Source: Macrostomum lignano
Lineage: Eukaryota
Assembly (NCBI GenBank): GCA_002269645.1
Contig: NIVC01002884.1
Location: 43,428-107,427, forward strand
Direction: 5' to 3'
DNA length: 64,000 bases
This document shows, piece by piece, positions 8,601 through 40,900 of the stretch. The notes under the pieces are model-generated. The model worked only from the letters and a program-made list of their open reading frames with translations, had not been told where the DNA came from and did no database searches. Within the stretch, counting starts at the first letter, position 1, and each line of letters begins with the position of its first letter. The position numbers and the translations under genes are program-made.

Positions 8601-9536
8601 TTTGCTGCTGCGAATTGGGATGAATAGCGGCTAACCCTGAGCTAACCTAATGAGCTGCGGGAATGGCGGTTTTGTTTGTGGCTTGCTGCATTATGAGAGT
8701 TGTGGGGTGTTGTCACCAGGGGACATGTCAATGCTAAGTCCCATGCCCCATCCATGTGACCCATTATGGAAATCAAGAATTTTGCTTCAGATGGTAGATG
8801 TTACAATGAGTGCCTAGCCAATCAGTATTAACAATACCAATTCCCAAAATATAGGTGTTTAGGTGTTAAACTTTAGGATTCTTGGTTTGCCCCCCCCCCC
8901 CTATCATAAAATCCATGTGCTACCCACTGAGAGATATGAAATACATAGTCAATTATATTGCCATGAATCTGAATTACATTGTTAGTTACATTGTTAATTA
9001 TCCTTAATTACATTTCCCATCAAACTTTTCTTTTCAAGATTTGGCTACAGTACGATTTTTTATTAGTAAATAGCACACCAAGCCTTTCCTGCAAAGATTT
9101 TCCCACATTGCTTTCTTCTTATAATGCATTTAGCCACATTGCAAATTTTGTCTATATTAATTTTGCCCCTTGCTTACAAATCCTTATTCTGGTTTAAATG
9201 CTCATTTTTCTTGTGGAAAAGGTTTCAATTTCTGTATATATGTAGGAGTTTGTTATATGTGTATTAGTGAGTGCATTTAGCCATGCCGTCTTTTATGCCC
9301 TAAATCTTTATATTATTATATATTACTAAGTATGGTAGGGGCAAAATGCAAGTTAATGAAAAAATGTTTGCATGGCTAAATGCATTATGTAATAAACAAT
9401 TAAACAAAAAAATAAGCTAGAAACTAAGAAAAACATAGGGTAAATTAAATAGAAATAGCAAATAGTATATCTAAATATACTAATCTCAATTTTAGAATAT
9501 AGGCTTTTTGGTAGTGTCAAAGCATAGATCTATATA

Positions 9537-16920: not shown

Positions 16921-19900
16921 GTATGTAGTTTGTGCTATTGATTTGATTTGATTTGTATTGATTTGTATTATTAAATTTATTAGTAACTTTTGGATATATT
17001 CATTGTCTTGCCTATATATTATATATTCTTGACTTCTTACATTTAACTTCCATATTGAGTTTATGATACTACTTTATTTGTTGTCTCTCTGTCTACTCTC
17101 TATCTAGTTTGTTTTTTTGCTACCTTTATTGTCAAGTATGCTCTATGCTTATTTGCTTATTTGTCATCAATTTATGTTTAGAAGTTTACCTATTATTTGA
17201 TCAGTGTTGTGTTAATTTGCTGTAAATATAAGCTGTCTAGTGTTTTCAGTTAATTACCTATCACCTGTCCAAGTGTTTCCATTAGCATCTTGTTGTGAGT
17301 GAGAGGTTTGCCATAAATCCTAAACACTCAGGCCACGGTTGTACACATCTACCAGTCTTTAAGTTGTTCTTTAAGTTTGAATTTAATAACAACTTCTGGG
17401 TCAGTGGGGGGCACATAAGGAAAAAAAAACTGCCCTCTGGAGAGGCGTTTTATCACACATTGCTTGTCTGTTTAGTGTCTTTTAGCTGACCTGTCATTTG
17501 TCACATCATGTTGGTAGCTTCCCGTCGATGAGTTTCCAGTATCTGAAATGACTTTCCTGATATGTGTCCTCTGTTTTTATCAACCTTAACCTGCCAACCA
17601 TGAAATTCAATAATTGAGTCAGTAATTATGTACTCATTTGGCTCTGTAACTCAGGAACAGATCTCAGCCCTTCACGCTGCCAGCGTTTTCAAAGACGACC
17701 GCCTGTCCCAATTAGACAGTCAAATTCGTCAGCTAGAAGGCCAGGCTCACGAACTGCGGGAAAGCGTTGCTGAACAATTGCAAGTTGTTGAATCTCGCGA
17801 CGCCGCTATTAAATTGCTGCGCGAACAGCAGGCTGCCGCGTTGCAAGCCAAAGATGAGCAGTTTGCCGAGAAGCTGGCCGCTACACAACTCTATTTTGAG
17901 GAGTGCTTGGCCGAGAAAGAGGACGAGAAGTCGCGTCTAATGGATGCTATTAAGGTGCGGAAGTTATTTCCGTTCAAAGCCAGCAGAATTTTATGATCGT
18001 TCATAAGTAGTGTATTGAGTTTCATATCTTTAGTCCCAATATATTATTTTCTAAGCTGTCTTTTTGGTTTCGAATCTTCTTTTAGTCTTACTTGAGGTAC
18101 CAAACGTGATTTTCGATGGAGGTCGGTTTTCGCTGCAGAATGCATTAGCGAGACAGGAATTTTGTACCTGTCTCCCCTCAGTGTATTCTTTTAAGGATTT
18201 TCCAGCGCAGCTTTTTCTCTACTGACCCGCTAAAAATTCAGGTGCTTCTTCGTTTGCTTCTTGTCGGAATCGGCGCCGCTTCCAGAAACCGAAGGAGCAG
18301 CACAAAAAACTTCAGGGAAACTTTAGGTGGGTGGGCTTTGTCTGCTTCCTGCGCTGATTCCGCAATCAAAGGAACATCAATAGCTTCTTCAGTTGCTTCT
18401 TTTACACTGTCGAGATAGGGCTCCTCTCGGCTGGAGTTGCGTCACAGAAGCGAACGAAGAAACAGCCGAATTTTTTAGCGGGGAATTGTCTATGGCCAAA
18501 CCCCATTCAGCGCTATGCAAAGAGCTAATCTTTGCAAAGCCAGCTTAGGAAACAGCACTGTATTGTAAGCGTTGCCGGTCTCCAGTAACACGAGGTGTGG
18601 CCGAAAATTAACGATAATTTTGCCATGATCTGGTATTGAGCAAAACATGAATTATAATTTTTAACACGGCACCCCAATCGCTGATGCCAGCTCCCGATGC
18701 ATTCTTGGAAGCTCTCCGTCGAGATGCCTCGTAAGACTCATCATCTCGACTGTCGCATTGTTCTTTATGTCTTCCAGTTCTTCAAATCGTGATTCTTTGA
18801 GAGGTTGCTTTACCTTTGGAAAGAGCCAGAAATCGCACGGGGCCGTATCTGGCAAATAAGGTAGTTTGTGCGACTTATATTTCAGCCAAAAACTGTTACA
18901 GTGAAAGTGCTTTGTGCGCCGATGGGTTTTCGTGATGCAGCAACCAGGCATTGTTTCTCCTACTGTTCACGTCGAACCCACTGCATCCTCAGTATCAACC
19001 TCTCTCGAGAACTGCCCCTGTGGCACAAACTCGTGATGGATGCACGAGGCCATGCAAATAAAATTTTTAGTTACTTTTTCAGTCAAAATTCTGGATGAAC
19101 TGTGAGCGCATCCCAAACGAAACCCATGCTTGCTTTATGCTAAGTTCGAAAATCAGCCTCCAGTGAAAATTGCACGATTCGTGAGTGCAGCGTTATTCTG
19201 CTTCATTTTGCCATGATACTTCATGATAGTTCTTCAGGGGTTGTAGCTTATCGGTTACAGCGTCTGGCTAACGACCGTAAGGTCGGGGGTTCGATTCTCG
19301 ACCCACTCGGAACAATTTGTGTCCTTGAGCAAGACACTTAACTCTGCATTGCTTCAGTTCACCCAGCCGTAAAATGGGTGCCAGCATTAGCTGGGGTAAT
19401 TGAGGCTGTGTGTGGCGACCCCCCAGTCCTTGGACTGAACAGCCGTACGCAGCCTTCAGATGCGCCGCGCAATAGCTGCAGCTGAGCTGTCGAATCGAAT
19501 TTGAGGGAAATTTTACTCGTCATTTATTTTCCTGACAGAATTTTGGCTGAGTAGAAGGCATGAGGGGGCTTCTGGGACAAAATTTTTCACGTCCTCCATA
19601 ATCCACCTAAATCCATCCATATTATCCCTGACAGAATCAGAAAAAAAAGGGGGTCGCACTTGCTCCAAAAACTTCGAACGTAATCCCATTAAATCCATCC
19701 ATATTATCCCTGACAGAATCAGAAAAAAAGGGGGTCGCACTTGCTCCAAAAACTTCGAACGTAATCCCATTAAATCCATCCATATTATCCCTGACAGAAT
19801 CAGAAAAAAAGGGGGGTCGCACTCGCTCACAAAACATCCTCCATAATCCACCTAAATCCATCCATATTATCCCTGACAGAATCAGAAAAAAAGGGGGGTC

Positions 19901-22900
19901 GCACTCGCTCACAAAACATCCTCCATAATCCACCTAAATCCATCCATATTATCCCTGACAGAATCATGAAAAAGTGGAGGGGTCGCACTTGTTCTGAAAA
20001 CTTCGAACATAATCCTATTAAATCCATCCATATTATCCCCGACAGAATCAGACAGTGGACACCTGTTATGCTCGCTGACACTGACATAATCCACTGACAT
20101 CCACCCATAGCATGTTCGAAACAATCAGAAAATAATCTGCATTCTTCTCCCCACATTCAATTTGCAACGCGAAACCAGATCCCAAAGATTTTAAATTATC
20201 AGCGCAGGGTCCTTACCCTTTGAAAAAATTAAATTCTCAATAAAAATGTTTCCAGTTGTCTCTCCAGGTTCTTATTATACTCAGCCTAATCCATTGTACA
20301 AATCCAAGTACCAATGCAAACTTGAATGCAGCGAATACATGAGAAAATATTGGCCCAACGTTGATATCAATGTCCCTAATATTAATCTAGCTCTCCAAAG
20401 ACATTGGTTTCATAAGTATGGAGTAACCTATGTAAAAGATTACGATAGCTACTATAACTTTGCAGAAATCATTAGGCAATTGTGATTTCTTACATTCTCT
20501 CAATGATCAACGTCAATACAAACTCTTCCCCATTAAAATCAACGCCCATCCCATCTTCAGTCTCAAACTGTAGCACAATCTCGTGAATCTCTTTATTACT
20601 CAATACAACTCTTTTCACTGGATTTGGTTTCTCTACCACCATCTGTCCTCCAGCAACAGAGTTGGAGATGTTGTACAAAATATTCGTTCGCTTTCCCTTA
20701 AATACCCAATCAAGACTGAGATTGCTTCTGATTAGAATATTCAAACCCTTTACAATGTCTGCAATATTGGGTGCTAAGAACAAACCGCTTACACTTTCCC
20801 GGACCATTCTAACAGTCCCCGATGCTTGAGTGGCGGTCTGCGCCGCGGATTCTGCCTTATAAACTTTCTTCTCGAATCCTAGTTCCCTATACCAAGTGTC
20901 ATCTTTAAACTCAACCTCCGCATTTTTGTGAACTTGCATGACCACTCTCATTACAGTGAGATCATAGGTTAGTTTGACAGGGAACAGTTTCTTCTCTGGC
21001 TTACTCGCATCAGGTGTCTCAAAATGGCCTCTCTTAGTAAAGACATTTTCTAGAAAGTTATTGTAGGTATCCACACTTTGCGTGCTCACATGGAATACCA
21101 CAGGGTCTGCTGCTGCACCTTTCCATTTGTAATAAAACTTATTATTTGCTGCCATCACATTAGGAACGTTTGACCAACCGGTGAAGTCGTTAAGATAGAC
21201 ATGGTAATTAGCACCTGGATCCAGGCGAATCGCCTGCTCTAATTTTTCAACAAATATCCCGTTTGAGTCATTAATTCGCCCAGTTATTGTAATAGGAATG
21301 CTCTCCTTAGAGTGAGAAACAATATTATTTAGTCTTTCAGCAATCGCTTCCATTTTTTTCACAAAAAAAAATATTTAAACTTTACTGGATGAATTGTTGA
21401 TCATGTTAAGCTTCACCTTCCTCTCAAATGCATAGATAATGTACAGGTCCACGGGTGTTGCGGTAGTCCTTTCAATGTTAGTCACGATATTCACAGGGCT
21501 GTTATCAGTAAGCATTTGTCTGGCAGACACATCAGCGCCAAACATCGGATATAGAGTTCCATATTGAAGAGCAGTGATAGCAATTCCATTGTTCTCTTTC
21601 ACAGCCAAGTCGACCAACTCGCTGTAAAATTTGCTAATCTTGTTCTGACTGAAATCTCCATTTTGTGGCAGTGCAGGGTAAAGATTATCACTGATTTCAT
21701 GCTGAATGGACCGCACGTCTCCATGCATGTAGCGTATGATGCTATTTGGGTTTCTCATATTAATAATGATATACCTTGGATTGCTGCATGATCCCTCTTT
21801 AATGCAGATGTTTGTTCTAGTTTCGTTTCGCTCATCTCGACACATGTAGGCTGTGTATGCAACATCAATGTCCTTCTCTATTGCCTTAAGATAATCCGCT
21901 TTTAGTGCAGTCTTTGGCTCAATGACTTCCAAATACAGCTCGATTCCGGTTAGCTTCACCTCCATCCTTGTGTGGTCCGCCCCAGTCCACAACACTCTAC
22001 TGCGATCATCTCTAGTCATCCTAAATGTGTAGCTAAAGTTACTAGTCAGTCGATTAAATGTATTACAGAATCCACTCATGAATCTCAATGGTACAAATAC
22101 ATCAACAGACCGATACTGCGGGTTCTTAGCAGCATCATCTGCACCTTGCAATGCATAGTTGTATCTCTTCTTCCTATTTTTATAGCCACTGTCATTGATA
22201 TCTCCTTCTTTTTCATCTGCAATAAAACCCGCACCACTTCCCAATTGAATAAAATCAGGATTCTCGATCAAACAATGAGCGTCATAGACAATTCCAAAGT
22301 TGGCGATTCGCTCCAACTCGGTGCTCCCATTCGATACACTAAACTCCTTGAACATGTACGCCCAAAAGTTACTGATCAGAGCCACATCCGCATCATGCTT
22401 GTCAACGTTAGCACGAGCCGCATCCGCACCACCTTTTGTCTTGAATTGAAATGTCATATGGAAGCCGCTCTTAAGACTGTGCACACTAACCAGAGACGAA
22501 CATCCATTGTATGTAAATGTCAGTGTTTGACCTGGACCCAAATTAGTTTCATTCTGGTTCTCGTGACTCGGAACTCTAACTTGTGTCGCTTTGATTGTGC
22601 TATCATCACTCAAAATAGGCTTGTTAATTTTGTAGAAAACTGGTGTCAGTGGGTCGTTCATTTTTTAACTAAAAATAAAATAAAATAAGAAATGAAGCGG
22701 AAAAGTTCATATCATATCTCTGAACTAGAAAAGCTGGCGCAAGCAGAGAAACGAGTTACCGGACTAATCAACAAAGAACAACAATCTTACAATGAATTCG
22801 TCCAAGCAGCCACCGAATTTCACAAACCTGGATACACAGAAGCGAAGAAAAACATCGACACTGTGAAGGAAACAATTGATGATATTCAAGAGAGCCAGTT

Positions 22901-25900
22901 GCAAAACACATTGGGTAAAATCCCATCTTCACCGGGACAACCACAGGCTCAGCAACCAGGACAACCAGTGCAGATGAAAGTGACGGATAACTTTTTTGGC
23001 CCCGTAACGGATGATGGAAAATATATATTTGGAATTAGCGCCTGGCGAAAAAATATCACCGGGGAACCGGCGGATTACAACATTGAAGTGACGAAGGAAA
23101 CTATTTCAATCAATAAAGGCGCAGAAACTAAACGAAACCCCTTCACTCAAAGTTTACTCGACTACATGACTAAAAATCAGGAAAAAATATCCGAGAAGCA
23201 ATTAAAGAATTATAGAGATCTGGTTACCTTCGCTTTAGAGAGGGACATAGACATTCTCAAGAACAACGGTGTTTTGAAAGTTTTACATGAAAACAGGATT
23301 GACTTGAACAGGTTTAGAAAATACAAATACTTTAAACAATGGTTTGGTTTGCCGGATCAAGAAGAGGTCATAAGACAACAACCACAACAACCACAGCCAC
23401 AACAGCAGCAACCACAACAGCAGCAACCAAAACAACAACTACAACAACCACAACAGCAGCAACCACAAACACAACCACAACCACAACAACCTCCACCGCC
23501 ACAGCAACAAATCACACCCGAACAAGTACTAGAAGCGCTTGAAAAAGCAGGGCCAAATGAGATTTCCCAGTACAAAGATACAAACCCTGATACTTGGCGA
23601 CAATTAGAGCGGCTCTCCCCAGAACGAATGAAGCGAATCAATGACAGAGTATTCACACCTCAACAAAGACAAGCGCCACATGACAGTTCCTCCTCTGACC
23701 AATCATTCGAATCACCTCCAAGCTCTTCCGGAAAAGGCATGCCTGAATTCTACAAGCGGTTAGCTGTTCTTCTAGGAGCGGCAAAGACCGGAATGAAAGA
23801 CGAGAATAGAAAAGAATTTGTCAACATCCTGGACAAAATGCTTGAGAGAAAATATATCGATAAAAGAGCAAGAGAACTTTTGCTTTCACGGTTTAACAAA
23901 AAAAAAATTTCTATTTAAAAAGATGCCGATTATTTTTGAGAAAGACGTGGACAAATACTATGACAAAGAGGAACTTAATCTTATTAAACGCGGATCTGGA
24001 CTTTTCCCTGCAGGCCACTATCCAAGAAAAGAACGCTCTGGGAATGGCCTTGCCGATTTGATCGCTCAGGGGGCCAAGATTTTTAAGGTCATTGGAGAGA
24101 ACAAAGAGAACATCAAGAACGTTGCCGAAGCGGCTGGCAGTGTAGCCACAGCAGCCAAAAAGATAAAGGATACTGTAACACCTAAACAAGAGATTCAACC
24201 TCCACTGGCCCCGCTGGCCCCAAACCCAGACAGTGTGGACCCTGCAGTCTATGAGAAGATGAGAGCAAGCATTAAAAAAGGAAGTGGTTTCAAATTTGAC
24301 TAAAGGTACTTTCCGAGGGTACAAGAAATGTAAAGGTACAAGACTAGTCTCAAAATGACACATCTAAGTCCCAAAATGACACAATTAAGTACCAAAATGA
24401 CACATCTAAGTCCCAAAATGACACATCTAAGTCCCAAAATGACACATCTAAGTCCCGAAATGACACATCTAAATTATTTATTATTTAATTATTTTTTTCA
24501 TCATAGAAAAAAAATGGACTTTTCAAACGACTTCAATCCTCACTGGACGCGTAATCAGATTAAGTTTTCTCATCATGAGTCAATCCCGAGTCACTTCAGA
24601 TGCATTGTTGTTGGTTCATCAGGTTCAGGTAAAACATTCAGAGTCTTTAACATGCTTCTTAGACCTGGCTTTATCGACTATGACACTCTGCACATCTACT
24701 CTCCCACACTGTATCAAGATGAGTATAGAATGCTGATTGCAGGGCTTCAAAACAAGCTGAACAAAGAGGACATTATTCAATGTTTTAATAACCAACAAAT
24801 CCTTCCCAGTAACCCTGAAATTGTAGCTGCCGAATATGCAAAGCACCTCAAAGACAATGAAAAATGGCAGAACATTAAAGTGTTCACCTATGGAGATCCA
24901 CAGGCTGATCCAAAGACCAAACTTCTACCCCAACCAGATGAGCTAGAAAAGGGGAGAAAGCATTTGATCGTCTTTGATGATTGTATGACAGGCCCACAGA
25001 AGCAGATAGAAAACTATTTTACAAGAGGACGACATAACAATTGTAATGTAATTTACATTGCACAGAACTGGTTCGAGCTCCCGAACAAAACAATTCGCGG
25101 GAACTGCAATCTGATTCTCCTGTTTCCAACCATTCCACAGGACAGGTTAAAAAGATTTTACAATGAGGTCATTGCGCCTGCCTATTTCATAAATCCAACA
25201 AAAAACTCAAGCAGAAAGATTTCACAAGAGGAATTCGTTAATCTTTGCTATGACAAGTGGAATCAGCCTTACCAGTTTGTGATTATCAGCAAAGAAAAAA
25301 GAACTGTAATTTAAAATTTGCTATTAAAAGATGTCAATAAACTTTGCAGGTGAATCCATTTCTGGCAACAGCGCTCTTACATCAGCTCAAATATCCATAC
25401 TTGACAGGCGATATATCAACAGCGACGAAAAGATCCCAGAGATCAAACTGAATAAAAACAGACTGAAACAATTAGAGCGCTCCATGCACCAGCTACAGAT
25501 AAACATAGAAGATCTCCGCATAAAAGTAGCCAGGCAGAAGTTTGAAAGTGATAAGCTTTATGTACAGGTTGTACACGCAACTAATGAACTTAGGTCAGAA
25601 ATAACTTCGGCAGTCTCGCAAATCAATGGGTTAACATCGACAATTAATCTTCTGAGAAATTCCACTGATAGACGGATGCGTATTCTTGAAGAAGGAGTTT
25701 TCACAAACAGAGCTAAAGTAAATAATTTAGAAGAGTTCATGAACCAGTCAACAGCGTTGCATGATAGAATTAAAGAAAACGTCGCAACCAACACAGGTAA
25801 AGTGAGGAATTTAGAAGAGTTCATGACTCAGTCAACATCGTTGCATGATAGAATTAAAGAAAGACTTGATGCAATTAAAGTCTATTTAGATTTAATTTTT

Positions 25901-28900
25901 ACCGAATGGCAGAAATCGTTGAGAAGAATCAGTCGTCTTGAGGGAGTACACAATCTTCCTGATATTGATACTGTTGAAGAGGCACCACAGACCACAAGGG
26001 AAATAAGTGATCCAACCGACTTGACCACTGACCACAAATTTCGTGAGCCAACCAGTTTGACCACTAACCCAAAATTTCGTGAGCCAACCGGTTTGTTTGA
26101 GATCAAGTGTAGAATGGAGCGCATAGACAAATAAATAGGTAGATTCGAAGAGACCTGCTGGCGCCAACTGCAGACGAAACAATCAAACGTAAAACAAATC
26201 TAACCACCACCAACGAGTTGTCAATTTTTTTAAAAAATTCTCTAAAAATGGATGCTCAAAATTCTCTTTATGATCCGAACGCTCCCACAGCACCTAGTGC
26301 ACCCCAATATGAGCAGCAAAAACTCTACCCTGTTATTACTTGTAACTCTCAACAGTTTCGACTGGTGGAGATTCAAAAAATGCGCGATGATCTTGAAAAA
26401 AATATTTTCCACAACACAAAGAAAATTAAGCGCTATGACAACCACTGTAAATTTTTCGACTACAGCAATATGATTCTAGGATCTGTGTCTGTTCTATCTG
26501 GATCTGCTGCAGCTGTCTCAGTGTTGCCAGTCATCACAGACCCAATCGCAATCCCGCTCGGCTCTGTGGGTGCTGCATGTGGACTTATTTCAGCAATTAC
26601 TGGAGCATTAGCGCGAAACAGGCGAAAAAAACTAAAGCAGCTACAGGAGAAGCAAGTAAAAGAGAAAGGGGTGCACACTTCAATCATAGGGTACATTTCA
26701 AGGGCAATCGAGGATAAGTTCATTTCAGAGGATGAGTTCAAAACCATTCAGGATCTTTATGAACAATCAATTCGAATGAACTTGAACATGGTCGGTACTG
26801 ATGACATGAGTCAGCTGAGAAATGAACTGAGAAAGTTCTTCAACATTATGCGGAAAGAAGGACAACGAGAAGTACAACGAGGAATGCACAATGAACCCTA
26901 TGAAACACAGGTACGAATAATTTCCTTGTAGGTCTTTCGTGTTTTGGTCATTGCATACAAAACAGTCATGCACAGCTCACCGCAAATATCACTGCTAAGA
27001 CCTTGAGAATAAAGTCTGAGCGATAAATTTTTTTATTCTTTTTTCCCTTCATATAATTTCTTAGCTCTTCTGGTACTGCCGTCCCATAGCTATCGAAGTA
27101 ATAACACTTGTGCTTGCGATCGGGATCAATCACCCAGCAAACCCAATGAGATCCTGGCTTATCAGTGGTGTCAAAGTTCATGATGCCGCATTCTTTCTTA
27201 GAGGAAAATCAGGCAGAGTGTCCCTCATAAATATTCCTCTAAAGTTTGGGATTTCCAGTTCGTTAGCCAAATCTTCAAGAAAGTTATTTGTTGTCATTTT
27301 TTATGAGGTTTATTAAACTTTCTCTCAACCTAAACCCAATATCCACCTCCTAAACCTAACCTCCAGTGCCCGAACGGTAGACTGTTGATATTGTCATCAA
27401 AAATGAATCTCTTGTTATCTGCACCTGACAGTCCAATCTTCTTTTGCTGAATTGTGTGAATAATATGGTTTTTAGATTGTAGCTTTGAGAACTCATGTGA
27501 TGTCTTTTTGTTGCAATTCAAGGCGTCTCTGTATTCAGCTTCATTAATTTCCTTCCTAACCACACGTTTCGGAATTCCCTTTGATTTTTTATTGGGTCTG
27601 ACGACTCACATTTTATAAAATAGGACTTTGCTCTCAACCCAATGAATTCAGTGATTATGTCACCAGCAATCTCGTCCTTCATTTTCCCAATCACTTTCTT
27701 GTTAGTGGCGTCAAACACTTGATCACCATTCAGCGTCCTGCAAGATTCATCATACTCAGACAAGTCAAACAAATCTTTTTGCTGCAGCATGTCCTGATAA
27801 ATGTCTTCTGTTTGAATGTCCATAATAAAACTGTCTGTGTCAGTGTACAAGAGTTTCATTTTATCCTTGTACTGCTGCTTCATGCCATAGAAGAACTGGT
27901 ACATCAGACGTTTTGATTCGTCGAGAACAGTGACACCTGTATAGATCGGCTTGCGCAGCGTCACCTTGGTTTTGTAAAATATGATCACACCTAAGTAGCT
28001 ATTAAAGATATGGAGTTCTTTGAATGTTGGCTTTGACATATTTGCCTGAATAACAGCAGGCTCTGATGAGGTAACAAGTTTCAGGTTTGTTCTTTTCCGC
28101 TCATTCTCAAGAGTCTTGCCATAGACAGAGTTGTTGGCCAACTTAAAGAGGTTCTTGTCAAAGTCGTTGGTTGCTTTGGTCCTAAACTGGGTGTTCTTAT
28201 CAATGTAGGGTTTCATCCACGCTTCCTCTGTAAATGTAAGAGCCCTGTGAACTTTGGTGACCCTGCAACCAAGTGAGATAAAATACTGAAGCAGTTTGTA
28301 ATGGATTTTGTAACGTGTCTTGTTGTTTAGATTCTGTGTTAGTTTCTCTGTATGTTCTTTTTCTGTTCCTGACAGGTGCCAAGTTCCATTATTATCATTG
28401 GGAGTTTCGATTATTTTCGGGCACTTGATGTTCTCTGGGAAGGGTGGAAAGTCAGAGAAATAGTCGTGAAGCTCTGGTGGAATGTAAACATCAACCTCAT
28501 AAATGGCAGCCAATGAAAAGTCCCATTTGAATTCTGATGAGGGTAGCCATCGAAAATCTCTAACTGGAAGATCTTGACTCATCGCCCACCGTAGAGATTA
28601 TTAGCGTCCAAGTAAGTAATGTAGTTTGAGGGCTGCTCCTTATTGTAAGATTCAATGTAGGGATTGTTTGCTTTTGCATATCTATGCAAATTGAGATTCC
28701 CCCTCGCTTTGACGATTCGACAAAATTGTACATGTCAATGTCTGTAAGAAGTTCAATGTACCAATCTGGATCTTGATCCCATTTCATTTTAAGCAAAGAT
28801 TCCCAGCTAGTGGCAGGCAGAGACACATAATGTGCTGGATCGAGGCCATATGCTGTGTACCAGGTGTATCTGAAGGTTTCAAACACATCGGCCAGCAGAA

Positions 28901-31900
28901 ACACATCTGTGAAGAGGTAAAGCAGGTGATACTGGAAGAAGTTTTGACAATTAAAGTAATTATAGACATGCTTCGCGTGCTCATAGTCTTTGTCAGAGAT
29001 TCCAGAGTCTGTTAGCTTTGAAAAGAACTTCTCCTGTGGTGGTAAACCTTCTTCAAATACGTGATACCCAGTAATATTTTCATAGGGGTAGAAGCCTTTC
29101 TTTCTTAAAAGTTTAAATGATTCATCAGTGTTGTTAATTTTACTTGCAAACATCTTTGTATATGTACATTGTTCATCTTTTAGATTCTTGCTTAGTTCGT
29201 CTAGACTGGCAGCTAGAAATTGATATGAATCCTTCAGTCTTATTTTACCTGTACCCGAATTATCCTGTTTAATATCAACACACTTAAACTTCTCCTTGTT
29301 CTCTGCGATGCAATCAAGGTGTATGTCTGGAATCATGCCGATTTTTTCAACTATTAAATGCATGTCATAGTTCTTTGCGTTGTGACAAAATATCGTTAGA
29401 TCATGAATGTTCGATTTTAGCTTTAGATTACAGGTGTTATGCGCTGCACCTCTAAATTTCCCAGTAAAGTGGCAGTGGTCCTAACGGTGGGGTTTTTAAT
29501 ATTAGTGCAAGTTAAATGTTTCCTGCAGATGTGGCAATGAGTTGCTGATAGGAAATTGCTTTCATCCTCCTCAGACATACTTATTGGAACAGGTTGAAGG
29601 GTGCTAATTACTCTTTGCAACTCTAACATTCTGGCAATAAACTGCTCCACACACTGCTCTCCAAAGAAATAATTATACTCAACAAGTCCTTTTGTATTAA
29701 TAAAGGCATATGCTACTGAATTGGGGATATGTTTTTGAGTTTGAGTTTGTTTTTGAGTTGGAGTTTGTTTTTGTGTTTCCGGCACGATTGAGCATTCGAA
29801 ATCAGCATATACAACAAATGGGAGCTTCTCCATCTTATGATAGTTCTTAAACCGGAGATACTTCTCTTCAGCTGAAGGAAGAGAGCAGTTTGTTGGGTGA
29901 TCCTCGCATGATAATTCATGCTCTGCTAGTTTTTCAAAGCGTTCAGGTCCACTGTAATGCTTAAGGCACAAGCGGCAGATGGCAACAGCCTCGTGATGAT
30001 TATTCAACTGCTTGTGAATGAGTCTTGAAAGATCTTTAATCCAAACATAGTGAGCCTCCTCTAGTAAATTACCAATCACTAGAAGATCCACTTCAGTCCG
30101 CCTTTTCCCCTCGGGATCTAAAACGTCTTTGCTACATCTGACCGGTTGAACTTTCTCAGTTTTTTCACTCCACTCAAAGACTGTGATTCTAATTTTGTTA
30201 TTAAACACTTCTTCTAGCTTTGGGATCTGAGAGATCGCCAAGCCTCCTTTGTCAAACCTGATTCCCTTCTTTTCGCATTCGATGAGATAGTAGTTGAAAT
30301 AATTTTGATAATTTGAGGTTCTTTCGGGGTGGTGAGGGACACAAAAAAGTGCAGAAAGAACTGCCCATAGAGCACAGCAATTGTCTTTATTTTTAACATT
30401 TATGCAAGCTTTTTTGCCGGCTAGCTTGTGTGGGAGCTCTATATAAGAGGAGGCTTTAAGTGGGTCATATTTCATGACCATGACAGTCGCTCTTTGAATC
30501 CCTCCCACGACCCATCCGGAACCTCTGGATGTAAACGCTTCAATTTTCTTAGTGACATCTTGAAGGAAAGGATCCAGTGTGTCTGTTGGGGTGAATGGCT
30601 TTGCCTTTGTTGTCATGTAATACTCGAGATGCTCAGTGGGTTTCGCAGGCATATAAAACGCAATCTTGAATGATATCTGTAGTTTAAAGTCTTGCGTGTT
30701 TTGAGTGTGTGATCAACAACTGATTGGATGCTGTCTTTATAGTCGTAGATGTTTGCGGTGGTATCTTAATTGGGATTGTGTACTCTATGTAATGTTCTGT
30801 AAACTTCCTCTGTGCAAAATTAATCTCTTCAGTGGCAAGCTCCGACTCTTTTAAATGGATTAATTGCTCTAATTTCTCTTGTTCCTGCTTATTTTGTGGG
30901 TACTTTGCTTTTTCACCAGTGAGAGTTTCATATTTGTTAACTAAGTTGCGACTCCTCTCTTGGTGTTCCTTTGCAGGATTTTTTATAGGCGCATACTGGT
31001 TGGATTCTAATTGATTGATGATTTCCAACTGTTTTTCATAGCTTCCCAGGTGACCAGGGTCGGTGTTAAACTTTTGTTTACATGCTTCTCTTAGTAAATT
31101 ACTTTTGTCTTGAAATGAGACGCCTTTTGAAAAATATTTGTTGACTAAATCTTTTGCTGGATTGGCTTTTGGCATTTTTTTCTCTAAAATAAAAAAAATT
31201 TTTGAGGGTGACCACCCTGATAGAAAAGTTGAACTGTTTCTACATCCTATCAGTAGCGTTAGGTTTATGAAGCTGGATAAAGTGGGGTTTTAAACCTCAT
31301 CACATGCGCATTATTGTAAACCCAGCATTGTGCAGTGTCATGATTGCTTTGACAATGTCAGACTTGCTTACAGAATTTTCATTCTCACAATCATCACGAT
31401 CGGGGCAGCCCTCTCCTGCCTTAATTGTTATACCTTTGTCTCTTGCAATCTTTTGCAATTCCAGCTGGTGGGCTCTATCATTACCAGCTTTAACAGCAGT
31501 TGCTACACCTCCAGCTACACCACCTGCGGCACTTACAGCGCCTGCAATGATCGGAATAAGAGCTGCTAATGGTAGGATTCCTCCTGACTTTTCATCTGTG
31601 ATGCTGTGTCTTTGTTCATTACACTGAACTATTTGCTGCGTGGGATCGATTTTTACTTTGACACCTTTAATTGATATAATACCTGGTTTCTTTGATTCAA
31701 TGATTTATTGAGTTTATTGAGGTTCTGTTTCAATCTTTGTCATTTTTTATTTTAATATTTTAATTAATTTCTGTGTCAGCTGGTATCACTAGGAGTTCAG
31801 CTCTAGTGAATGACCGCGTGGGGGATTTAGGGTTAAAGGCTTGAGATAAAAAGTAATAGTCACCGGAGTCGGAGGTAAAATGTCTGTCTATTTTATGCAC

Positions 31901-34900
31901 ATCAAGGCTGAAGTATGGATCTGTAGCTCTTCTTTTGGTGTCTTTCTCTAGCTCTCCAGGTAGATATAAAAAGCGTAGAAACTCAGAGTTTGTCAGTATG
32001 TATGGTGATTCAACTCCTGGAAGCTTAGGGTAGTTCGAGGTGTGTTTTGTGTTGTGTGTGTTGTGTGGGGTTGTCGTGTTGTTGTCTGTTTTATGAGATG
32101 ACTTAAGTTCGACAGTGTCTTGTTTAATTGCATGGGATGGTTTCAATCCAGTCATGCGTGTGACTTCATTGTTCAGTTGCTCTATAACAGTGGGGAGTCT
32201 TTCTGTCCACTTGGTATAGTACTGACCACTTTTTAGTTTCAGCTCCTCTGCTGTCTGCTTAGTGAATAGCCTCTTGGCTAGAGTTAGATTGAATCTTTCC
32301 ACAAAAGCCTGATCTCTGTGGAGCTCAGTTCTGCCATAGCGAATCGCTGTATTTTTCTTTTCCATAAGTGATTTCACTGCACCCATGAATTCTTTACCAG
32401 GGTCGGTCTTAAAGATTTGGGGGTATGTGAGCGGAGAGTTTTTATAAATATCTTGGAGGGCGGTTGCAACTGCTTCTGACTTCTTCGTCTTGAGTGGGCG
32501 AGCTTCCTTATATCTGGAAGCAACGTCTGTAATTGTAAGAGCATACTTGTAGCCCGAGTCATTGGGGAGAAACAGAAGATCTGCTTGGTGTGCCTCATTA
32601 GGTTTATAAATACTGAAATGGGGCCTTTCAAATTTTACTGGTGGGAAATAGACTTGAAAGACAGCCTGCTTAGAGAGCCATTTTTCTACTGTAGCTTTTG
32701 GCTCCTTACTCAGCTCCATGAGTTTACTAACGGCATTTTTGCCTACAAAGAATCCTTTGTCGCTGTAGTAGAGTTTTTTAAGTTTCTGATCTGTCATTTT
32801 TTTAAAAAGAAAATTTTAAATAAAATAATGCAGCGCTCTGGTGGTAAAATAGATTCACATGGACTGATAGAAAAGCTTCCTCATCCAAACAAAGGCTGGA
32901 CACTTCCCGGCTATAAATATTGCGGGCCTTTGAATCCACTTGAAATACAGTTAGATAAAAACAATAATCCACATCCTGGGCATGAGCCTGTGAACGAGCT
33001 AGACTCTGTCTGCATGTGGCATGACATCAAGTATAGAGATTTTCCTGAGGAGAAGAATCGGTGGGACAAAGAAATGCTTAAGAGACTAGACAATATAGGG
33101 GTTTCAAGCGGATTTCGTGAGTCGATCGCTCGGAAGCTAGTTAAAGCTGTTATTTTTAGTAAGACAAAACTGGGGTTGGGGGTGTACGCCGAGGGCGGGT
33201 GTTTGGGGAGAGAGGGCGGGTGCACGGGGTGCTCGGGAACAGGGTTTATTTTGTGTGCTCCAAACGAGGAACTAGGAAGACTGCTGAAAGATATGGGGAT
33301 AGAGAGAGACGCTTGAGTCGGGAAGGATTTAAAAAAAAGACTCATCGATATTAAATTGTAATAAGTGAAGAGCTTGGTTAAATATTTTATTTTATGTTAA
33401 TAAACAAAAAAAACATTAATACAAAGTTGTTCAAAGTTACATATAATAATTTGCTTAATTAATTCATTCAGTTATTATTTCATTGAAAACTACTATGAGT
33501 AGGCTTAGCTTCGAAAAAGTTCTAAACACTTTCCTGGATCTCCAGGATTTTTTTCCAGGATTTTTTTTCCAGGATTTTATCCAGGATTTTATCAATGTAA
33601 GCCGCTCATAGTAGTTTTCAGGGTAAAATAACAGGATTATTTTTTTTAATTTTAATAAGTGAAGAGCATGGTTAAATATTTTATTTTATGTTAATAAACA
33701 AAAAAACATTAATACAAAGTTGTTCAAAGTTACATATAATAATTTGCTTAGTTAATTCATCCAGTTATTATTACATTGAAAACACTACGAGTAGGCTTAG
33801 CTTCGAAAAAATTCTAAACACTTTCCTGGATCTCCAGGATTTTTTTCCAGGATTTTATCAATGTAAACTACTCATAGTAGTTTTCTAAACACTTTCCTGG
33901 ATCTCCAGGATTTTTTTCCAGGATTTTTTTCCAGGATTTTATCAATGTAAACTACTCATAGTAGTCTTCTAACACTTTCCTGGATCTCCAGGATTTTTTT
34001 CCAGGATTTTATCAATGTAAACTAGTTTTCAAGGTAAAATAACAGGATGAATTTTTTTACGTTACAATTTGTTTAGTTTATTCATCCTTGGCTTAGTCGA
34101 CTGATGCAGTCGCCAACTCCATCGTAGTCTCCTCCAGCAAGGCGTCCTCGTTCTCTCCTTCAAACACGATGGCAATATCAGTCTCCAACTTGCAGCAGAA
34201 GTTGTCGTCCTGCTCCGCCTCTTTCTCGATCGCTCTTTTGTATGTGAGCAGCGACTCGAACGAGTACCCGGAGAAGACTAAATTTGGGTACTTCCTGATG
34301 AACCCGTGGAAGGTGTACAGTCGTTCGGCGAACTTGGGGTCGATGTCCAGTCGCTTGGCGGCTCCTTCTGTTGAGAGACCTTGGGTCTTAATAGACGCGA
34401 GGATCTCCGCCTGCTTTTTTCTCGCCAGACAGGTGAGCACCTCCAAGTCCCCAATGAAGGACTCTAAACTGGCGAACTGCGTCAACATTCCGTCCACATC
34501 CGTTTGAACGTCGGCCAAGCATAACGCTTTAGCGTTGTAGAAACTAAAAAAAAGCAATAACACGGAATCATAATGTAAAATATGTTTCGCTTTCTAGAAA
34601 TCATAAAAACCTTAAGTAATTTAAATCACGTTTTTACCAAGTCAAGGATTGCAAATAATAGAATAAGCAAAAAAAACTTACCGCGTCTTGATGTCGATCT
34701 GCTCATTTTTAATTTTTTTGAGACTCTCTTTTAGACGCGCTATGAAGCGTGCCTCTCGGCGCTCCTTGTCATTACTGGAGCGCTTGGCCTCGTCGGATTT
34801 CTCTTTTTTCAACGATTCACGATCGATTTTTTGCAAGCATTCAAACAGTGAGGCCTGCTCCTCTTCGTTAATGGCGGTAATCGCGACAGCCGTGCTTGCG

Positions 34901-37900
34901 ATGTCTTTGCTACTGATACTTTTAATTGTATCGATAATTTTTGTCGGCTGCTGTTTCGCCTTCGAATTCATGACAGAAGAGAGCAAGGTGAGGCTAGGCG
35001 AGGCAGGGCGAGTCGAGGCGGGGCGAGGTGCGGTGTGAATCGGCTGTTTATATACCCGGCAGTTGCATGTAGTTGCCAACTACAAGGTAGTACCTTGTAG
35101 TTGGCAACTACAAGGTACTACCTTATAACTTCAGCCAATGGAGAGAATGGAAAGCACATGTGGAGCGCATGGCATGGGTTTTATTTTTTACGTAGAACTT
35201 ACGTAAACAAGGTACTACCTTGTAGTTGGCAACTACGATCTGATTTCGCGTTGCGAATTGAATGTGGGGAGAAGAATGCAGATTATTTTCTGATTGTTTT
35301 AGAAATGTTATGGGTGGATGTCGGTGTCAATGAGCATAACAGGTGTTAGTGGACACCTGCTCTGATTCTGTCAGGGATAATAATGGATGGATTTAATAGG
35401 ATTATGTTCGAAGTTTTCGGAGCAAGTGCGACCCCTCCCCTTTTTTCAAGATTCTGTCAGGGATAATATGGATGGATTTAGGTGGATTATGGAGGATGTT
35501 TTGTGAGCGAGTGCGACCCCCCTTTTTTTTCTGATTCTGTCAGGGATAATATGGATGGATTTAGGTGGATTATGGAGGATGTTTTGTGAGCGAGTGCGAC
35601 CCCCCTTTTTTTTCTGATTCTGTCAGGGATAATATGGATGGATTTAATGGGATTACGTTCGAAGTTTTTGGAGCAAGTGCGACCCCCTTTTTTTCTGATT
35701 CTGTCAGGGATAATATGGATGGATTTAATGGGATTACGTTCGAAGTTTTTGGAGCAAGTGCGACCCCCTTTTTTTTCTGATTCTGTCAGGGATAATATGG
35801 ATGGATTTAGGTGGATTATGGAGGACGTGAAAAATTTTGTCCCAGAAGCCCCCTCATGCCTTCTACTTGGCTGACCTCGTACTCGAACTTTTTTATTCGA
35901 ATTTAGTTGTTTGAAAGGACGGAGGGTCAATCCCTATTAAGCATGGCCGCATAGCTTATCTTAAACGAGCAATATTTTTAGTCATTTACATAACCCCTTT
36001 ATTCATTCATTCAGCGAAAGCAAGAAGAGATCTCTATGAAAGACGACGATATGCTAATTCTGATGAAGAGTCACGAAGAATCCGTTAAAAAGCTGTTCAA
36101 TGGTGAGTGCCCGTGTTTAAAAAAGCAGAAATGCAATCAGTTTCTTCTATGTATATAATATGATCACTCAAATATGATATTGTCAGAGGCCAGCAAGCAA
36201 AATGTTGACACAATATTCGAATCGCAACTGCGCGACTGCCAAGAGGCTCTTCGACAGAAAATTGAACGACTTAAAGAGGCGGAAGCTCAGCTGTTGGAGC
36301 AGCAGAGTCAACTGGCTGAGAGAGACTTTGCTGTCAAAGAGCTCAAGAATGAGCTGAACAATTTAAGGGTAAATATGCTACTCTTAACAGATTTTAAGGC
36401 AGATGCAGGGCTTCACTGAAGAGTGAGCAGGCAGATGCAGGGCTTCACTGAAGAGTGAGCAGGTAGATGCAGGGCTTCACTGAAGAGTGAGCGGGTAGAT
36501 GCAGGGCTTTACTGAAGAGTGAGCAGGTAGATGTAGGGCTTCACTGAAGAGTGAGCAGGTAGATGCAGGGCTTCACTGAAGAGTGAGCAGGTAGATGCAG
36601 GGCTTCACTGAAGAGTGAGCAGGTAGATTTAGTGCTTCACTGAAGAGTGAGCAGGTAGATGCAGGGCTTCACTGAAGAGTGAGCAGGTAGATTTAGTGCT
36701 TCACTGAAGAGTGAGCAGGTAGATGCAGGGCTTCACTGAAGAGTGAGCAGGTAGATGCAGGGCTTTACTGAAGAGTGAGCAGGTAGATGCAGGGCTTCAC
36801 TGAAGAGTGAGCAGGTAGATGCAGGGCTTCACTGAAGAATGAGTGGGTAGATGCAGTGCTTCAATGTTAAATTATTTGAAAAAAAATTACGTATTTTTCT
36901 GTTGTATTCCAGAAATCCGAAGCTGCAGCATCTTCCGGAGCCGCTGAGGCGCTGGCAGCAGCGGACGAGGCGGCCCGCAAGGAGCTGCAGGCGGAGCGCA
37001 AGCGGCATCTGACCGCCAAAGCGAAGGTCAAATCGTTGGAAAAACAATTGGCTAAAGTTAAGGAGGAGCAGGCTGAGGTAAATCAGTGTTATTCTGCCGA
37101 TGTGATGATCACAATGATTAGATTGTTGTGTTCTGAATACAGCTTATATTGTTAATTGTTCTACCAGGCCGCTAGCCAATGGGCTCGCGAGGCGGACGAG
37201 CTTCGATCTAAGGCGGTCCAGTTGGAGACGGAGCGCAGCAGCCTGGAGCAGCGCCTCGCGCAGCTGCAGGCTGACGCAGACGCCGTTTCCGCTGCCGCCG
37301 TGGCGCCAAAGCCGGCGGAAGATCTGCGCGTCGAATTGCAAGCGGAAAAGAAGAAGCATTTATCAACTAAGGCTCGAGTGAAATCATTAGAGAAGCAGTT
37401 GAAAGCTTTGGATGCTCAGTTGCAGCAACAGCAAACAAAGGCGGGGGCAACACGGGTGAGTGTTTGTAGTATTTGGTGCTGAACTTCATGCAGTTGAACA
37501 AATTAAAATCAAACAATTGGATTTTCCCGATCAAGTGGATCCGGCTGAAAAAATCGATAAGAACACGTTAATAACTATTAGGCGGTGGTTATTTAATAAG
37601 TAAAGATACTCGTATTTTCAAACATTGTCATACTGAACATTTAGCATTGGTATTTAATGCATCCTTAAACCCCAAACTGGTTTGAAGTAAATGAGTATAC
37701 TCGAATGCGTTGACTATTGTCAATCTGATGCAAATCTCTATTGCAGGACACTGGTTCCGAAAGCAGCCCCGAGCATCCGATAGAAACCAGCGAAGTGCAA
37801 CAATCGGCTTCGAGTGGCGGACGCAGAGAAGATGCAGACGTTAGCGGACAGTTGTTGAGAGAGAAAACTGAAGAGCTAGTCAAGCTGCAAGACGCTTACT

Positions 37901-40900
37901 CGCAAATTTCTGCATCTTCGCTGTCTCTACAAAAGAAATATGATGAGCTCAAACAACTACATGAACGGCTAGAATCGGAGAATATACGATTAACTGAGCA
38001 AAACTCTGCTATGATTGAGCGCGTCAAATCAGCTGATAGTCGAATTGCTGAACTGACAGAATCTGTCGAACAGCTTGGCTCAGAAAATTCTTTGTTGCGG
38101 GAGCAAGCAGCCCAATTGAGCGATAGCGTCAAGGCTGCACAATCCAGCATCCATGAGCAAGTAGGAACGCTCAACTCTGAAAAGCTTCAACTAGCTGAGC
38201 AGAATACTCGATTGAATGAGCAAATACAAAGCTTGGAATCTGAATGCGCAAATTTCAAACAAGTTATCGAACAGCTGGAGTCAGAAAAACAATCCATGTC
38301 TGCGCGTAACTTAGAAATTGCAGAAAGGTTGACCGAGAATGAAGCGCTTGTTGACGAATTAAACCAAATGTCGGCTAAAGTAGACACCGAAAGGTCAGCG
38401 CTTTCTGTAGAGGTTACAAGGCTAAATGATGAGCTAGCGCAATCGAAATCCGGCTTTCAGGAGTTGAAACAACAATTTGAAGACTTGCAATCGGAGAAGC
38501 AGCTTCTTTTTGAACATAAAGACAGCTTGCAGTCACAGAAGTCTCAATTAGAAGTCCAAGTTGCAGATCTCAATGAAAAGCTGAGCTTTAGTGAATCTAA
38601 CTTCAGCGAGCTTAAACAACAGATTGACGGCTTGCAATCGGAAAAGTCTCAGTATGCTGATCAAGTTGCAGATCTCACTGAGAAGCTGAGCGTCAGTGAG
38701 GCCAACTTCAGCGAGCTTAAACAACAGATTGACGGCTTGCAATCGGAAAAGTCTCAGTATGCTGATCAAGTTGCAGATCTCACTGAGAAACTTAGCGTTA
38801 GTGAGGCCAACTTCAGCGAGCTTAAACAACAGATTGACGGCTTGCAATCGGAAAAGTCTCAGTATGCTGATCAAGTTGCAGATCTCACTGAGAAGCTGAG
38901 CGTTAGTGAGGCCAACTTCAGCGAGCTGAAACAACAGATTGACGGCTTGCAATCGGAAAAGTCTCAGTATGCTGATCAAGTTGCAGATCTCACTGAGAAG
39001 CTGAGCGTCAGTGAGGCTAACTTCGGCGAGCTTAAACAACAGATTGACGGCTTGCAATCGGAAAAGTCTCAGTATGCTGATCAAGTTGCAGATCTCACTG
39101 AGAAGCTGAGCGTCAGTGAGGCTAACTTCGGCGAGCTTAAACAACAGATTGACGGCTTGCAATCGGAAAAGTCTCAGTATGCTGATCAAGTTGCAGATCT
39201 CACTGAGAAGCTGAGCGTCAGTGAGGCCAACTTCAGCGAGCTTAAACAACAGATTGACGGCTTGCATTTGGAAAAGTCTCAGTATGCTGATCAAGTTGCA
39301 GACCTAACTGAGAAACTTAGCGTTAGTGAGGCCAACTTCAGCGAGCTGAAACAACAGATTGACGGCTTGCAATCGGAAAAGTCTCAGTATGCTGATCAAA
39401 TTGCAGATCTCACTGAGAAGCTGAGCGTCAGTGAGGCTAACTTCGGCGAGCTTAAACAACAGATTGACGGCTTGCAATCGGAAAAGTCTCAGTATGCTGA
39501 TCAAGTTGCAGATCTCACTGAGAAGCTGAGCGTCAGTGAGGCCAACTTCAGCGAGCTTAAACAACAGATTGACGGCTTGCAATCGGAGAAGTCTCAGTAT
39601 GCTGATCAAGTTGCAGATCTCACTGAGAAGCTGAGCGTCAGTGAGGCTAACTTCAGCGAGCTTAAACAACAATTAGACAGTCTGCAAGCGGAGAAGTCCC
39701 AGCTGGAAGACCAAGTAGCAGACATCACTGAGAAGCTGGGAATTAGTGAGTCTCACTCCAGTGAGCTGAAGCAACAGATTGAAGGTTTGCAGTCGGAGAA
39801 GTCTCAGTATGCTGATCAAGTCGCAGACCTCACTGAGAAGCTGAGTGTCGGAGACTCGAAGTCAAGTGATTTGAAGCAACAGGTTGACAGCTTACTGTCC
39901 GAGAAGTCCCAATTAGAAGAGCAAGTCTCAGGCCTCACTGAGAAGCTGACCGCTAGCCAGTCTAACTCCAGTGAGCTGAAGAAACAGATTGACAGCTTGC
40001 AGTCGGAGAATTTGCAATTAGAAGGCCACGCCGCGCACCTAAATGAAAAGCTCTCAGTCAGTGAATCGAACTCCAATGAACTAAAGCTACAGATCGATAC
40101 CTTACGGTCTGAAAAATCCTCAATAGTTGAACAATGTACTGACTTAAGTGAGAAGTTAAAAGCCCATGAATTAACTTCTAGTGATTTTAAGCATCAAAAA
40201 GACAGTTTGTCTGCCGAAAATTCTCAGTTGGCCGACCAAATTACAGTTCTCACCGAAAAGCTGAAAAGCAGCGACTCAAACTCAACTGAACTTAAACAGC
40301 ATATAGATCTTTTGTCGAAAGAAAAAGATCAATTCGCAAATGAAGTTGCTGATCTTACTGAAAAGTTGCGAAATAATGAGTTGAACTCTGAAGGGCTTAA
40401 AAAACAGATTGAAAGCTTTCAGTCGGAAAAATCCCAACTCACGGACAACATTATAGAACTTAATGAGAAATTGAGAGTTAGCGAGTTAAGCCTGAGCGAT
40501 ATTAAGCAGATTTCCGATAGTCTGTCTTCTGAAAAAGCTGCGTTAACTGAACAAGTCGCTGATCTCAACAAAAAGCTAAGTGAAAGTGAATTAAGTTCAA
40601 AGAAAATGAAGCTGCAAATCGATAGTTTACAGTCAGAGAATTCACAGTTCGTTAACCAAATTGCTGACTTCAGAGAAAAGCTGCAAGTTCACGAATCGAC
40701 TACCATGGACTTTAAAAATCAGATTGACGATTTGTCGTCGGAAAAATCTTTGCTGGCTAACCAAGTCGAAGCACTCACGAATAATGTGAACACCACCGAG
40801 TCCAACTGTAGTGAACTAAAGCTGCAAGTCGAAAACTTGTTGACTGAAAAATCTGAATTAGAAGACCAAGTTGCACATTTAACTGAAAAGTTAAGAGTCA

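Follow-up and report, generated by a model that had tools for sequence, protein, structure and literature searches.

Polintons of 15–20 kb that carry a major capsid protein (MCP), a penton, an ATPase, and a protease are standard, and recognisable MCP genes were reported for more than 80% of 72 Polintons (PMC4028283; this and the other publications given by identifier are cited from parts of their text). Phospholipase A2 (PLA2), pX-like domains, and cupiennin-like membrane proteins have already been described for adintoviruses (PMC8502044), and adintoviruses, Mavericks, and Polintons have been treated as one group, whereby a phospholipase is common in group 2 (10.64898/2026.06.19.733378). A layout of terminal protein, vOTU, exonuclease, and polymerase has been described, in which the vOTU is proposed to free the terminal protein (PMC11161782). 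In flatworms, 748 Polinton-type pairs of DNA polymerase B (PolB) and integrase were counted in 8 of 73 genomes, and Orthopolintovirales insertions were recorded in Rhabditophora (PMC10748475; 10.1101/2025.04.19.649669). Here, we analyzed a 64,000-nucleotide stretch of the Macrostomum lignano genome (contig NIVC01002884.1, positions 43,428 to 107,427; hereafter the window, from whose first letter all coordinates are counted), which contains an element of 16,318 bp at 19550–35867. With its terminal inverted repeats (TIRs), 6-bp target-site duplication, protein-primed PolB, RVE integrase, double-jelly-roll MCP, A32 ATPase, and adenain-like protease, its predicted identity as a Polinton/Maverick (Polintoviricetes) holds up. 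We consider it probable that the element was inserted recently as one copy of a Polinton/Maverick family that is young, high in copy number, and likely still packaging into capsids at times.

Insertion, family size, and capsid gene

An earlier note on this DNA had described a full-length element with a perfect target-site duplication, integrated recently into a host gene, and these points were borne out, the host gene with high probability. The element begins with AGTAG, ends with CTACT, and is flanked on both sides by TGGCTG. Its TIRs are about 630 bp long; their outer 254 columns are identical between the two ends, the middle 166 columns hold 1 substitution and 2 gap columns, and the inner 225 columns hold 10 substitutions and 25 gap columns. 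A flank search of the assembly placed the right flank of the element at four sites, of which the other three are element-free and carry a single TGGCTG; these copies of the host locus are 95–100% identical. The empty alleles prove the duplication, and the insertion is therefore younger than the split of the locus copies. Thus, the insertion is recent, for which the empty alleles are better evidence than TIR identity. TIR identity alone would be a poor clock because the outer ends seem to have been re-made identical: in several other copies, the TIRs extend over about 930 bp and take in a 79-aa open reading frame (ORF) at either end, and the window copy therefore has the appearance of a mosaic in which the outer ends became identical only later. 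In a set of 30 element ends, all six end pairs that share one contig show a 6-bp duplication, at five distinct sites including that of the window. Target-site specificity, an idea prompted by 11 bp of the left flank that resemble a TIR subrepeat, was rejected, since the flanking sequence varied among the 30 ends and just one other site adjoins the same host repeat. A short host repeat that lies next to the insertion site (about 19250–19490) and at 56720–56979 is possibly a short interspersed nuclear element; its depth was very high in three RNA-containing sequencing runs and lower in a fourth.

A DNA search for the MCP gene gave 347 candidates, of which the 40 scored were all 98–100% identical. 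The corresponding protein search gave 663 candidates, and 96 of the 98 scored were full-length and free of stops at 97–100% identity, whereby the ranking of candidates by score biases these 98 towards intact genes. The family is therefore a young, high-copy one of near-identical copies with polymorphic insertions. Several copies are 19–23.5 kb long through 2.4–7 kb insertions of unrelated DNA (L081, L083-L084, L088, L090, L093-L094). Sequencing runs that contain the element come from eight studies, and none is on record as an RNA run. Of the 20 runs, 19 share an organism label and one has a different label. In the latter (X17) the element occurs at about 98–99% identity, which could reflect a sister species, a shared culture, or a mislabel. 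Contigs of three runs guessed to be RNA and of one DNA run cover 30 of 30 bins of 20200–33300, whereby, strand and level not being given, copies could enter via read-through or DNA.

The ratio of nonsynonymous to synonymous polymorphism (pN/pS) was determined from 57 overlapping stretches of 27 copies. For shared variants it amounts to 0.06 for MCP, 0.15 for the putative penton, 0.05 for the ATPase, and 0.02 for a 126-aa ORF; to 0.15 for pX, 0.13 for PLA2, 0.09 for integrase, and 0.10–0.35 for the PolB pieces; and to 0.20 for the middle piece of the protease (7 variants only) and 0.17 for the 79-aa ORF. The capsid-module genes are thus under purifying selection, an argument that has also been applied to fish Mavericks (PMC8097293). 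This shows that the virion module mattered in the recent past of the lineage; present particle production is a separate question.

The MCP matches the DJR-like family PF21738 with an E-value of 3.5e-5, which is under the curated cut-off of Pfam, and the best Atlas cluster of an MCP homologue is DJR-like at 0.97. Structure modelling of the MCP, which had also been named as a check, came out in favor of a capsid protein. For the model, built from 13 sequences, the nine best matches among 48,161 solved chains (VIA) were all double-jelly-roll capsid or scaffold proteins, namely with faustovirus MCP as the best (Z 10.0, root-mean-square deviation (rmsd) 7.8 over 314 residues), and with the poxvirus scaffold (Z 9.3, rmsd 8.2 over 287) and PBCV-1 (Z 8.9, rmsd 7.7 over 283) among them. 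In BFVD, 122 entries matched the model at E ≤ 0.001, the best 50 being mostly major capsid proteins of 6–12% identity. As modelled, the MCP is thus shown to adopt the double-jelly-roll fold. Outside the genome, word-limited searches found 9 relatives with a single sequence and 12 with a profile, at 70–77% and 41–44% identity; none of these 12 has an informative name, and the MCP had no match among PDB sequences or in IMG/VR. It plausibly represents an undescribed capsid lineage. The penton claimed in the earlier note was not confirmed: the frame has no Pfam match, its single-sequence model is unusable (predicted local distance difference test (pLDDT) score 35.6), and in the Atlas it matches only unnamed viral clusters. 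From its place beside the MCP, its conservation, and its sequence pattern, we retain it as a putative penton.

A right-end cassette exchanged among near-identical copies

At the right end, a cassette of about 2 kb is exchanged among copies that are otherwise near-identical. This right arm measures 0.6–5.2 kb in the 24 stretches that showed PLA2 as well as the right TIR, and it occurs in seven types without mutual DNA similarity, while PolB is 97.4–99.9% identical over 98 pairs scored as different-arm (a few of these pairs are of the same type, label “h?” being type d, which leaves the top PolB pairs unaffected). The arm gene of the window copy was absent at the DNA level from 27 of 27 other copies fetched, and a genome search found it at 12 places with at least 93% identity, its own locus counted. 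Most arms encode one helical protein of 200–270 aa, of which six versions are 11–30% identical to that of the window copy. In a leave-one-out profile test, six of the seven versions scored above all 500 shuffles, one of them marginally. One arm type divides again at 36% identity, and the versions come as groups of near-identical open copies. The protein family has 235 relatives at the 50% cluster level (1.84 billion representatives searched); four of ten relatives looked up belong to clusters named as Macrostomum lignano proteins, and the rest are unnamed or called “hypothetical protein”. Arm homologues appear in public protein names as multi-copy host gene models, and the capsid protein returned no named record. 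The presence of arm genes as host gene models is a weak hint that they are transcribed.

In the window copy, the ORFs 34678–34971 and 34093–34593 are probably two exons of one gene (34971–34682 and 34543–34093), separated by a predicted GT–AG intron of 138 nt and 75% AT that keeps the frame; an intronless homologue reads the same residues over the predicted exon joint. It is our guess that the arm gene could be an early DNA-binding regulator. Profile searches of the PDB with the arm protein gave nothing under E 0.1. A likeness to DUF3102 was rejected, as no such Pfam match was found in 10 proteins nor in 89 members. Rejected likewise were palindromic operator arrays for every arm type, which are clear in only two of eight upstream regions. 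One arm (L087:1975-2247, + strand) carries a C3HC4 RING finger gene instead (Pfam E 2e-9), and another (L085:901-1959, + strand) contains a 352-aa ORF with a weak QRICH1-domain match, which we presume may be a nested Crypton-like element. A second variable spot is the segment 25880–26298 between the coiled-coil ORF and the membrane-protein candidate, in whose place most other copies have different sequence.

Gene content, host locus, and broken frames

The features of the element and its insertion site are compiled in Table 1. PolB, integrase, ATPase, pX, and PLA2, all named in the earlier note, have Pfam matches above the curated cut-offs, including Pox_A32 for the ATPase at E 6e-6; those of MCP and protease lie below. 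Catalytic motifs are present in ATPase, integrase, PLA2, and PolB. The PolB region comprises an N-terminal part, OTU-like Cys/His motifs, an endonuclease-VII-like insert, the Exo I–III motifs, and the Pol B and C motifs. DNA_pol_B_2 (PF03175; E 2.5e-11, 43.6 bits) matches one fragment only, the polymerase fragment being without a match, and the endonuclease VII matches are weak. One of 17 covered copies holds PolB as a single frame, 27345–31175, and a separate terminal-protein gene at 30684–31175 was therefore rejected, this frame being the front of PolB. The adenain-like protease claimed earlier is upheld by Peptidase_C5 on a fragment (E 8.4e-4) and by its motifs, all three of which, including His and Cys, share a single frame of 133 aa in 15 of 30 copies with the window copy among the 30; in the window copy itself, the frame is broken. 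The pX frame of about 150 codons is bounded by the integrase stop. Of the at least four orphan ORFs proposed earlier, four ORFs without a family name stand, and the PolB front and the two probable arm-gene exons drop out as such. The 126-aa ORF is a candidate for a protease-cleaved core protein. The C-terminus of the 408-aa ORF presumably resembles the Polinton protein PZ, and the hairpin of the 227-aa membrane-protein candidate, for which no Pfam match above the cut-off was found, we take to be PW/cupiennin-like.

Table 1. Predicted features of the Polinton and of its insertion site (window coordinates)
Feature	Position	Strand	Remarks
Predicted host intron enclosing the element	17955–36014	+	GT donor/AG acceptor, phase 0; about 1.7 kb when empty
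Left target-site duplication TGGCTG	19544–19549	+	Single copy at three empty sites
Left TIR with subrepeats of about 82 bp	19550–20181	+	Repeat comparison of both ends
79-aa ORF without family	20246–20485	+	In several other copies, part of a longer TIR (about 930 bp) at either end
Putative penton (minor capsid protein), 287 aa, open	20490–21353	-	Position and sequence pattern
MCP, double jelly roll, 428 aa, open	21375–22661	-	Pfam, structure model
408-aa Gln/Pro-rich ORF, open	22692–23918	+	pN/pS 0.18 from 5 copies
126-aa basic ORF	23923–24303	+	Three K/R-x-G-x-G motifs; pN/pS 0.02
A32-like packaging ATPase	24514–25314	+	Walker A and B; frame opens at 24355 across a 21-bp repeat
267-aa coiled-coil-like ORF without family	25331–26134	+	3' end differs in most other copies
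227-aa ORF, moderately hydrophobic Gly/Ala-rich hairpin	26248–26931	+	Maximum 19-residue hydropathy 1.85
Adenain-like cysteine protease	~26900–27300	-	Three frames in this copy; Pfam, motifs
Protein-primed PolB	27330–31175	-	At least five frames in this copy; Pfam and motifs
Stand-alone pX-like core protein	31300–31750	-	5' end broken in this copy; Adeno_PX E 3.7e-7
RVE integrase, 345 aa, open	31760–32797	-	D-D-E motifs; rve E 1.8e-9, above cut-off
Parvovirus-type PLA2, 161 aa	32831–33316	+	YxGP and HD motifs, no pX domain; Phospholip_A2_4 E 1.4e-13
AT-rich internal direct repeats	33351–34059		Downstream of arm gene
Variable right-arm gene, predicted two exons, 246 codons	34093–34971	-	Unnamed helical family
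TATA box and palindrome array	35047–35236	-	TATA 83 nt before arm gene ATG, palindromes upstream
Right TIR	35237–35867	-	Repeat comparison of both ends
Right target-site duplication TGGCTG	35868–35873	+	Matches left 6 bp

The element very probably sits in an intron of a host gene, where the predicted splice sites at 17955 and 36014 would join two coiled-coil-like open frames. In three of the four runs compared with the empty host site the contigs show the next host intron spliced, and no read spanning the joint 17955/36014 was seen in these contigs. The gene (17604–60603, + strand) would encode a giant, repetitive protein of the coiled-coil type, whose repeats are 28 and 35 residues long and whose C-terminus is hydrophobic; it may be giantin/golgin-like. 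The intron also holds a transposon remnant (18661–18966, - strand) with what we presume is a mariner-type transposase motif; it is present at the empty sites, too. Elsewhere in the window, there are mitoferrin (SLC25A28/37) exons at 3842–8630 on the - strand and tandem arrays of 28-bp and 32-bp units at 6630–8300 and 36301–36972. A mitoferrin exon proved to be metazoan, with its highest identity (71% over 38% of the query) to an M. lignano protein.

A “complete” virion module, as the earlier note had put it, is not what this copy contains. Its protease lies in three frames, its PolB in at least five stop-bounded pieces, the longest of which makes up 34% of the gene, and its pX has no start, so that, judged from the frames as assembled, neither a polymerase nor a protease could be produced from this copy. 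In a survey of 20 copies, picked from 40 matches by room on the contig, MCP was open in 8 of 15 covered copies, the putative penton in 9 of 15, and the ATPase in 10 of 17; for protease, integrase, PLA2, pX, and PolB the counts were 9/20, 11/16, 11/15, 6/17, and 1/17. Private indels are about as frequent as private substitutions (96 versus 79 in 76,129 bp; 44 versus 41 in 33 kb; 42 versus 48 and 80 versus 47 in two further sets); they are mostly single-base, in-frame stops are few, and private substitutions in PolB have a pN/pS of 0.16–0.29. Natural decay is expected to bring many more neutral substitutions than indels. Because the two are about equal here, the breaks are likelier assembly errors in a repeat that is hard to polish, and we lean towards this explanation for most of them. 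On the other side, the single-base indels in protease and PolB show no enrichment in base runs (35 of 70 versus a background of 48%), and a host frame of 4,273 codons (12.8 kb; 37729–50550) is unbroken in the same window, so that real decay keeps some probability. In that case, the window copy would depend on other copies: it would be truly dead or non-autonomous, copied and inserted by enzymes from another copy. This would agree with the lack of a clear homopolymer bias and with the clustering of its breaks in 26900–31750 while 20490–26931 is unbroken. However, similar scattered breaks occur in every copy, and over the 4.3-kb protease and PolB stretch the window copy has 5 substitutions of its own beside 3 single-base indels, an odd ratio for natural decay according to established mutation spectra. 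A dead window copy is therefore a possibility that we regard as somewhat doubtful.

Alternative readings and comparison with known systems

Particle formation is what we infer for this family, with purifying selection as the backing, and several points weigh against it or against parts of the picture. All eight core frames are open in none of 11 fully covered copies, and PolB in just the one mentioned above. The stretches used for pN/pS overlap and include duplicated insertions, which inflates the counts of shared variants, and purifying selection could stem from a recent viral ancestor rather than from present particles. The MCP model is of low confidence (pLDDT 54) and its rmsd values are high; the identity of the penton is unverified. 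The arm protein has no Pfam family, with helix-turn-helix-type families matching one member each of 89 (E 1e-4 to 7e-3), and besides the marginal version, one arm version failed to beat all shuffles. The finding that none of the copies examined has all of its frames open in the assembly would suit a family that now moves only as an intragenomic transposon, whose capsid genes are recent viral relics and which makes no particles. Hundreds of candidates at 97–100% identity would fit a single burst, and in several genes selection is weaker on private than on shared variants, for instance 0.48 versus 0.15 for pX and 0.49 versus 0.19 for the membrane ORF. Nevertheless, MCP is more constrained than PolB, at least 96 full-length MCP genes are without stops, and near-identical sequence occurs in runs with a second organism label, so we regard a transposon-only family as unlikely. 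At the other extreme, the element might belong to a Polinton virus of a laboratory flatworm that forms particles at present, with a capsid clade of its own and with the terminal cassette as an exchangeable control or immunity module, which we hold to be quite improbable. If it were true, divergent forms of a single DNA-binding regulator, each with upstream sites of its own, would set incompatibility types, like the repressor regions of temperate phages. It might also be that the variable arm is no functional module but cargo carried along passively, acquired from the host or from other elements, since a number of arms are short or harbor different genes, for example the RING finger, and close arm homologues are hypothetical host proteins in public gene models. 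However, arm DNAs without mutual similarity encode members of one protein family in the same position, as the shuffle test indicates for six of seven versions, and the groups of near-identical open copies and the 235 relatives also stand against mere cargo, which is thus distinctly unlikely.

For the young family that is probably packaged at times, a cycle can be proposed largely from what is known of Polintons and adenoviruses. In its likely mode of spread, a linear form would be replicated from a protein primer and inserted by the integrase, whereby the vOTU would free the terminal protein, which would prime PolB at the TIR ends. The ATPase would load the DNA into a shell of MCP and penton, the protease would mature the core proteins (pX and the 126-aa ORF), and PLA2 would aid entry. 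The arm gene might act as an early regulator transcribed by the host polymerase, and the arm might be swapped by recombination between co-resident copies, the outer TIR being re-copied from the other end. With about a hundred or more capsid genes free of stops, with insertions that are polymorphic, and with the whole virion module under selection, this family is well suited to a search for particles, and M. lignano has been described as the sole flatworm with stable transgenesis (PMC8717057). Through its swappable cassette, the element also draws attention to a protein family without a name, which may govern the switching-on of such elements.

The earlier note had suggested an undescribed adintovirus-like lineage. 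The distant capsid with its 12 unnamed relatives speaks for this; the kit of PLA2, pX, and membrane protein, in contrast, has already been described (PMC8502044). Literature searches did not find an earlier description of the family or the cassette, whereby RepBase and subscription journals lay outside their scope and a prior name is possible; the part searched of the Starrett adintovirus supplement contained no flatworm term. The flatworm surveys, in the parts drawn on, give counts by accession and no family descriptions, and the window family may be among those counted. Parvovirus-type PLA2, a pX-like protein, an OTU-like domain in PolB, integrase, adenain, and an FtsK/A32 ATPase are shared with Alpha adintoviruses (PMC8502044). 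In these, the two form a PLA2X fusion, whereas the window element encodes PLA2 and pX separately, on opposite strands and on either side of the integrase; Pfam gave no Adeno_PX match in its PLA2. As regards the archetypal PF03175-type PolB and the Mayetiola-class hexon of Alpha adintoviruses, the PF03175 match to PolB is weak and limited to one fragment, and among the best 50 BFVD matches of the weak MCP model there was no close adintovirus hexon. The divergent PolB, with its endonuclease-VII-like insert and motif pattern, presumably resembles polymerases of group 1 Polintons/Beta adintoviruses, the Pfam matches being weak, and the small membrane-active candidate may correspond to their cupiennin/PW. 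In contrast to Beta adintoviruses, PLA2 is present, which is said to mark Alpha modules (PMC8502044), and the pX frame has no gasdermin match as would mark GasderminX. Since its PLA2 is not fused to pX, its PolB is divergent, and GasderminX is lacking, the element fits neither adintovirus class cleanly.

With Polintons, it shares the size range and the features listed at the outset, including a double-jelly-roll MCP that lies beside a candidate penton. It differs from them in an MCP for which two word-indexed searches found just 12 unnamed relatives, and in a terminal cassette that can be swapped and whose gene is probably spliced, whereas intact vertebrate Mavericks are described, in the parts cited, as intronless. 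As in fish Mavericks, core genes are under purifying selection (PMC8097293), and broken copies predominate as in Polintons; open-capsid copies are far more numerous than the maximum of 38 intact elements given for one fish, although the two measures differ. Compared with these systems, the gene inventory itself is ordinary, and the value of the element lies in a young, high-copy family under selection, in a host that is likely tractable, in the divergence of the capsid, and in a terminal gene that can be exchanged.

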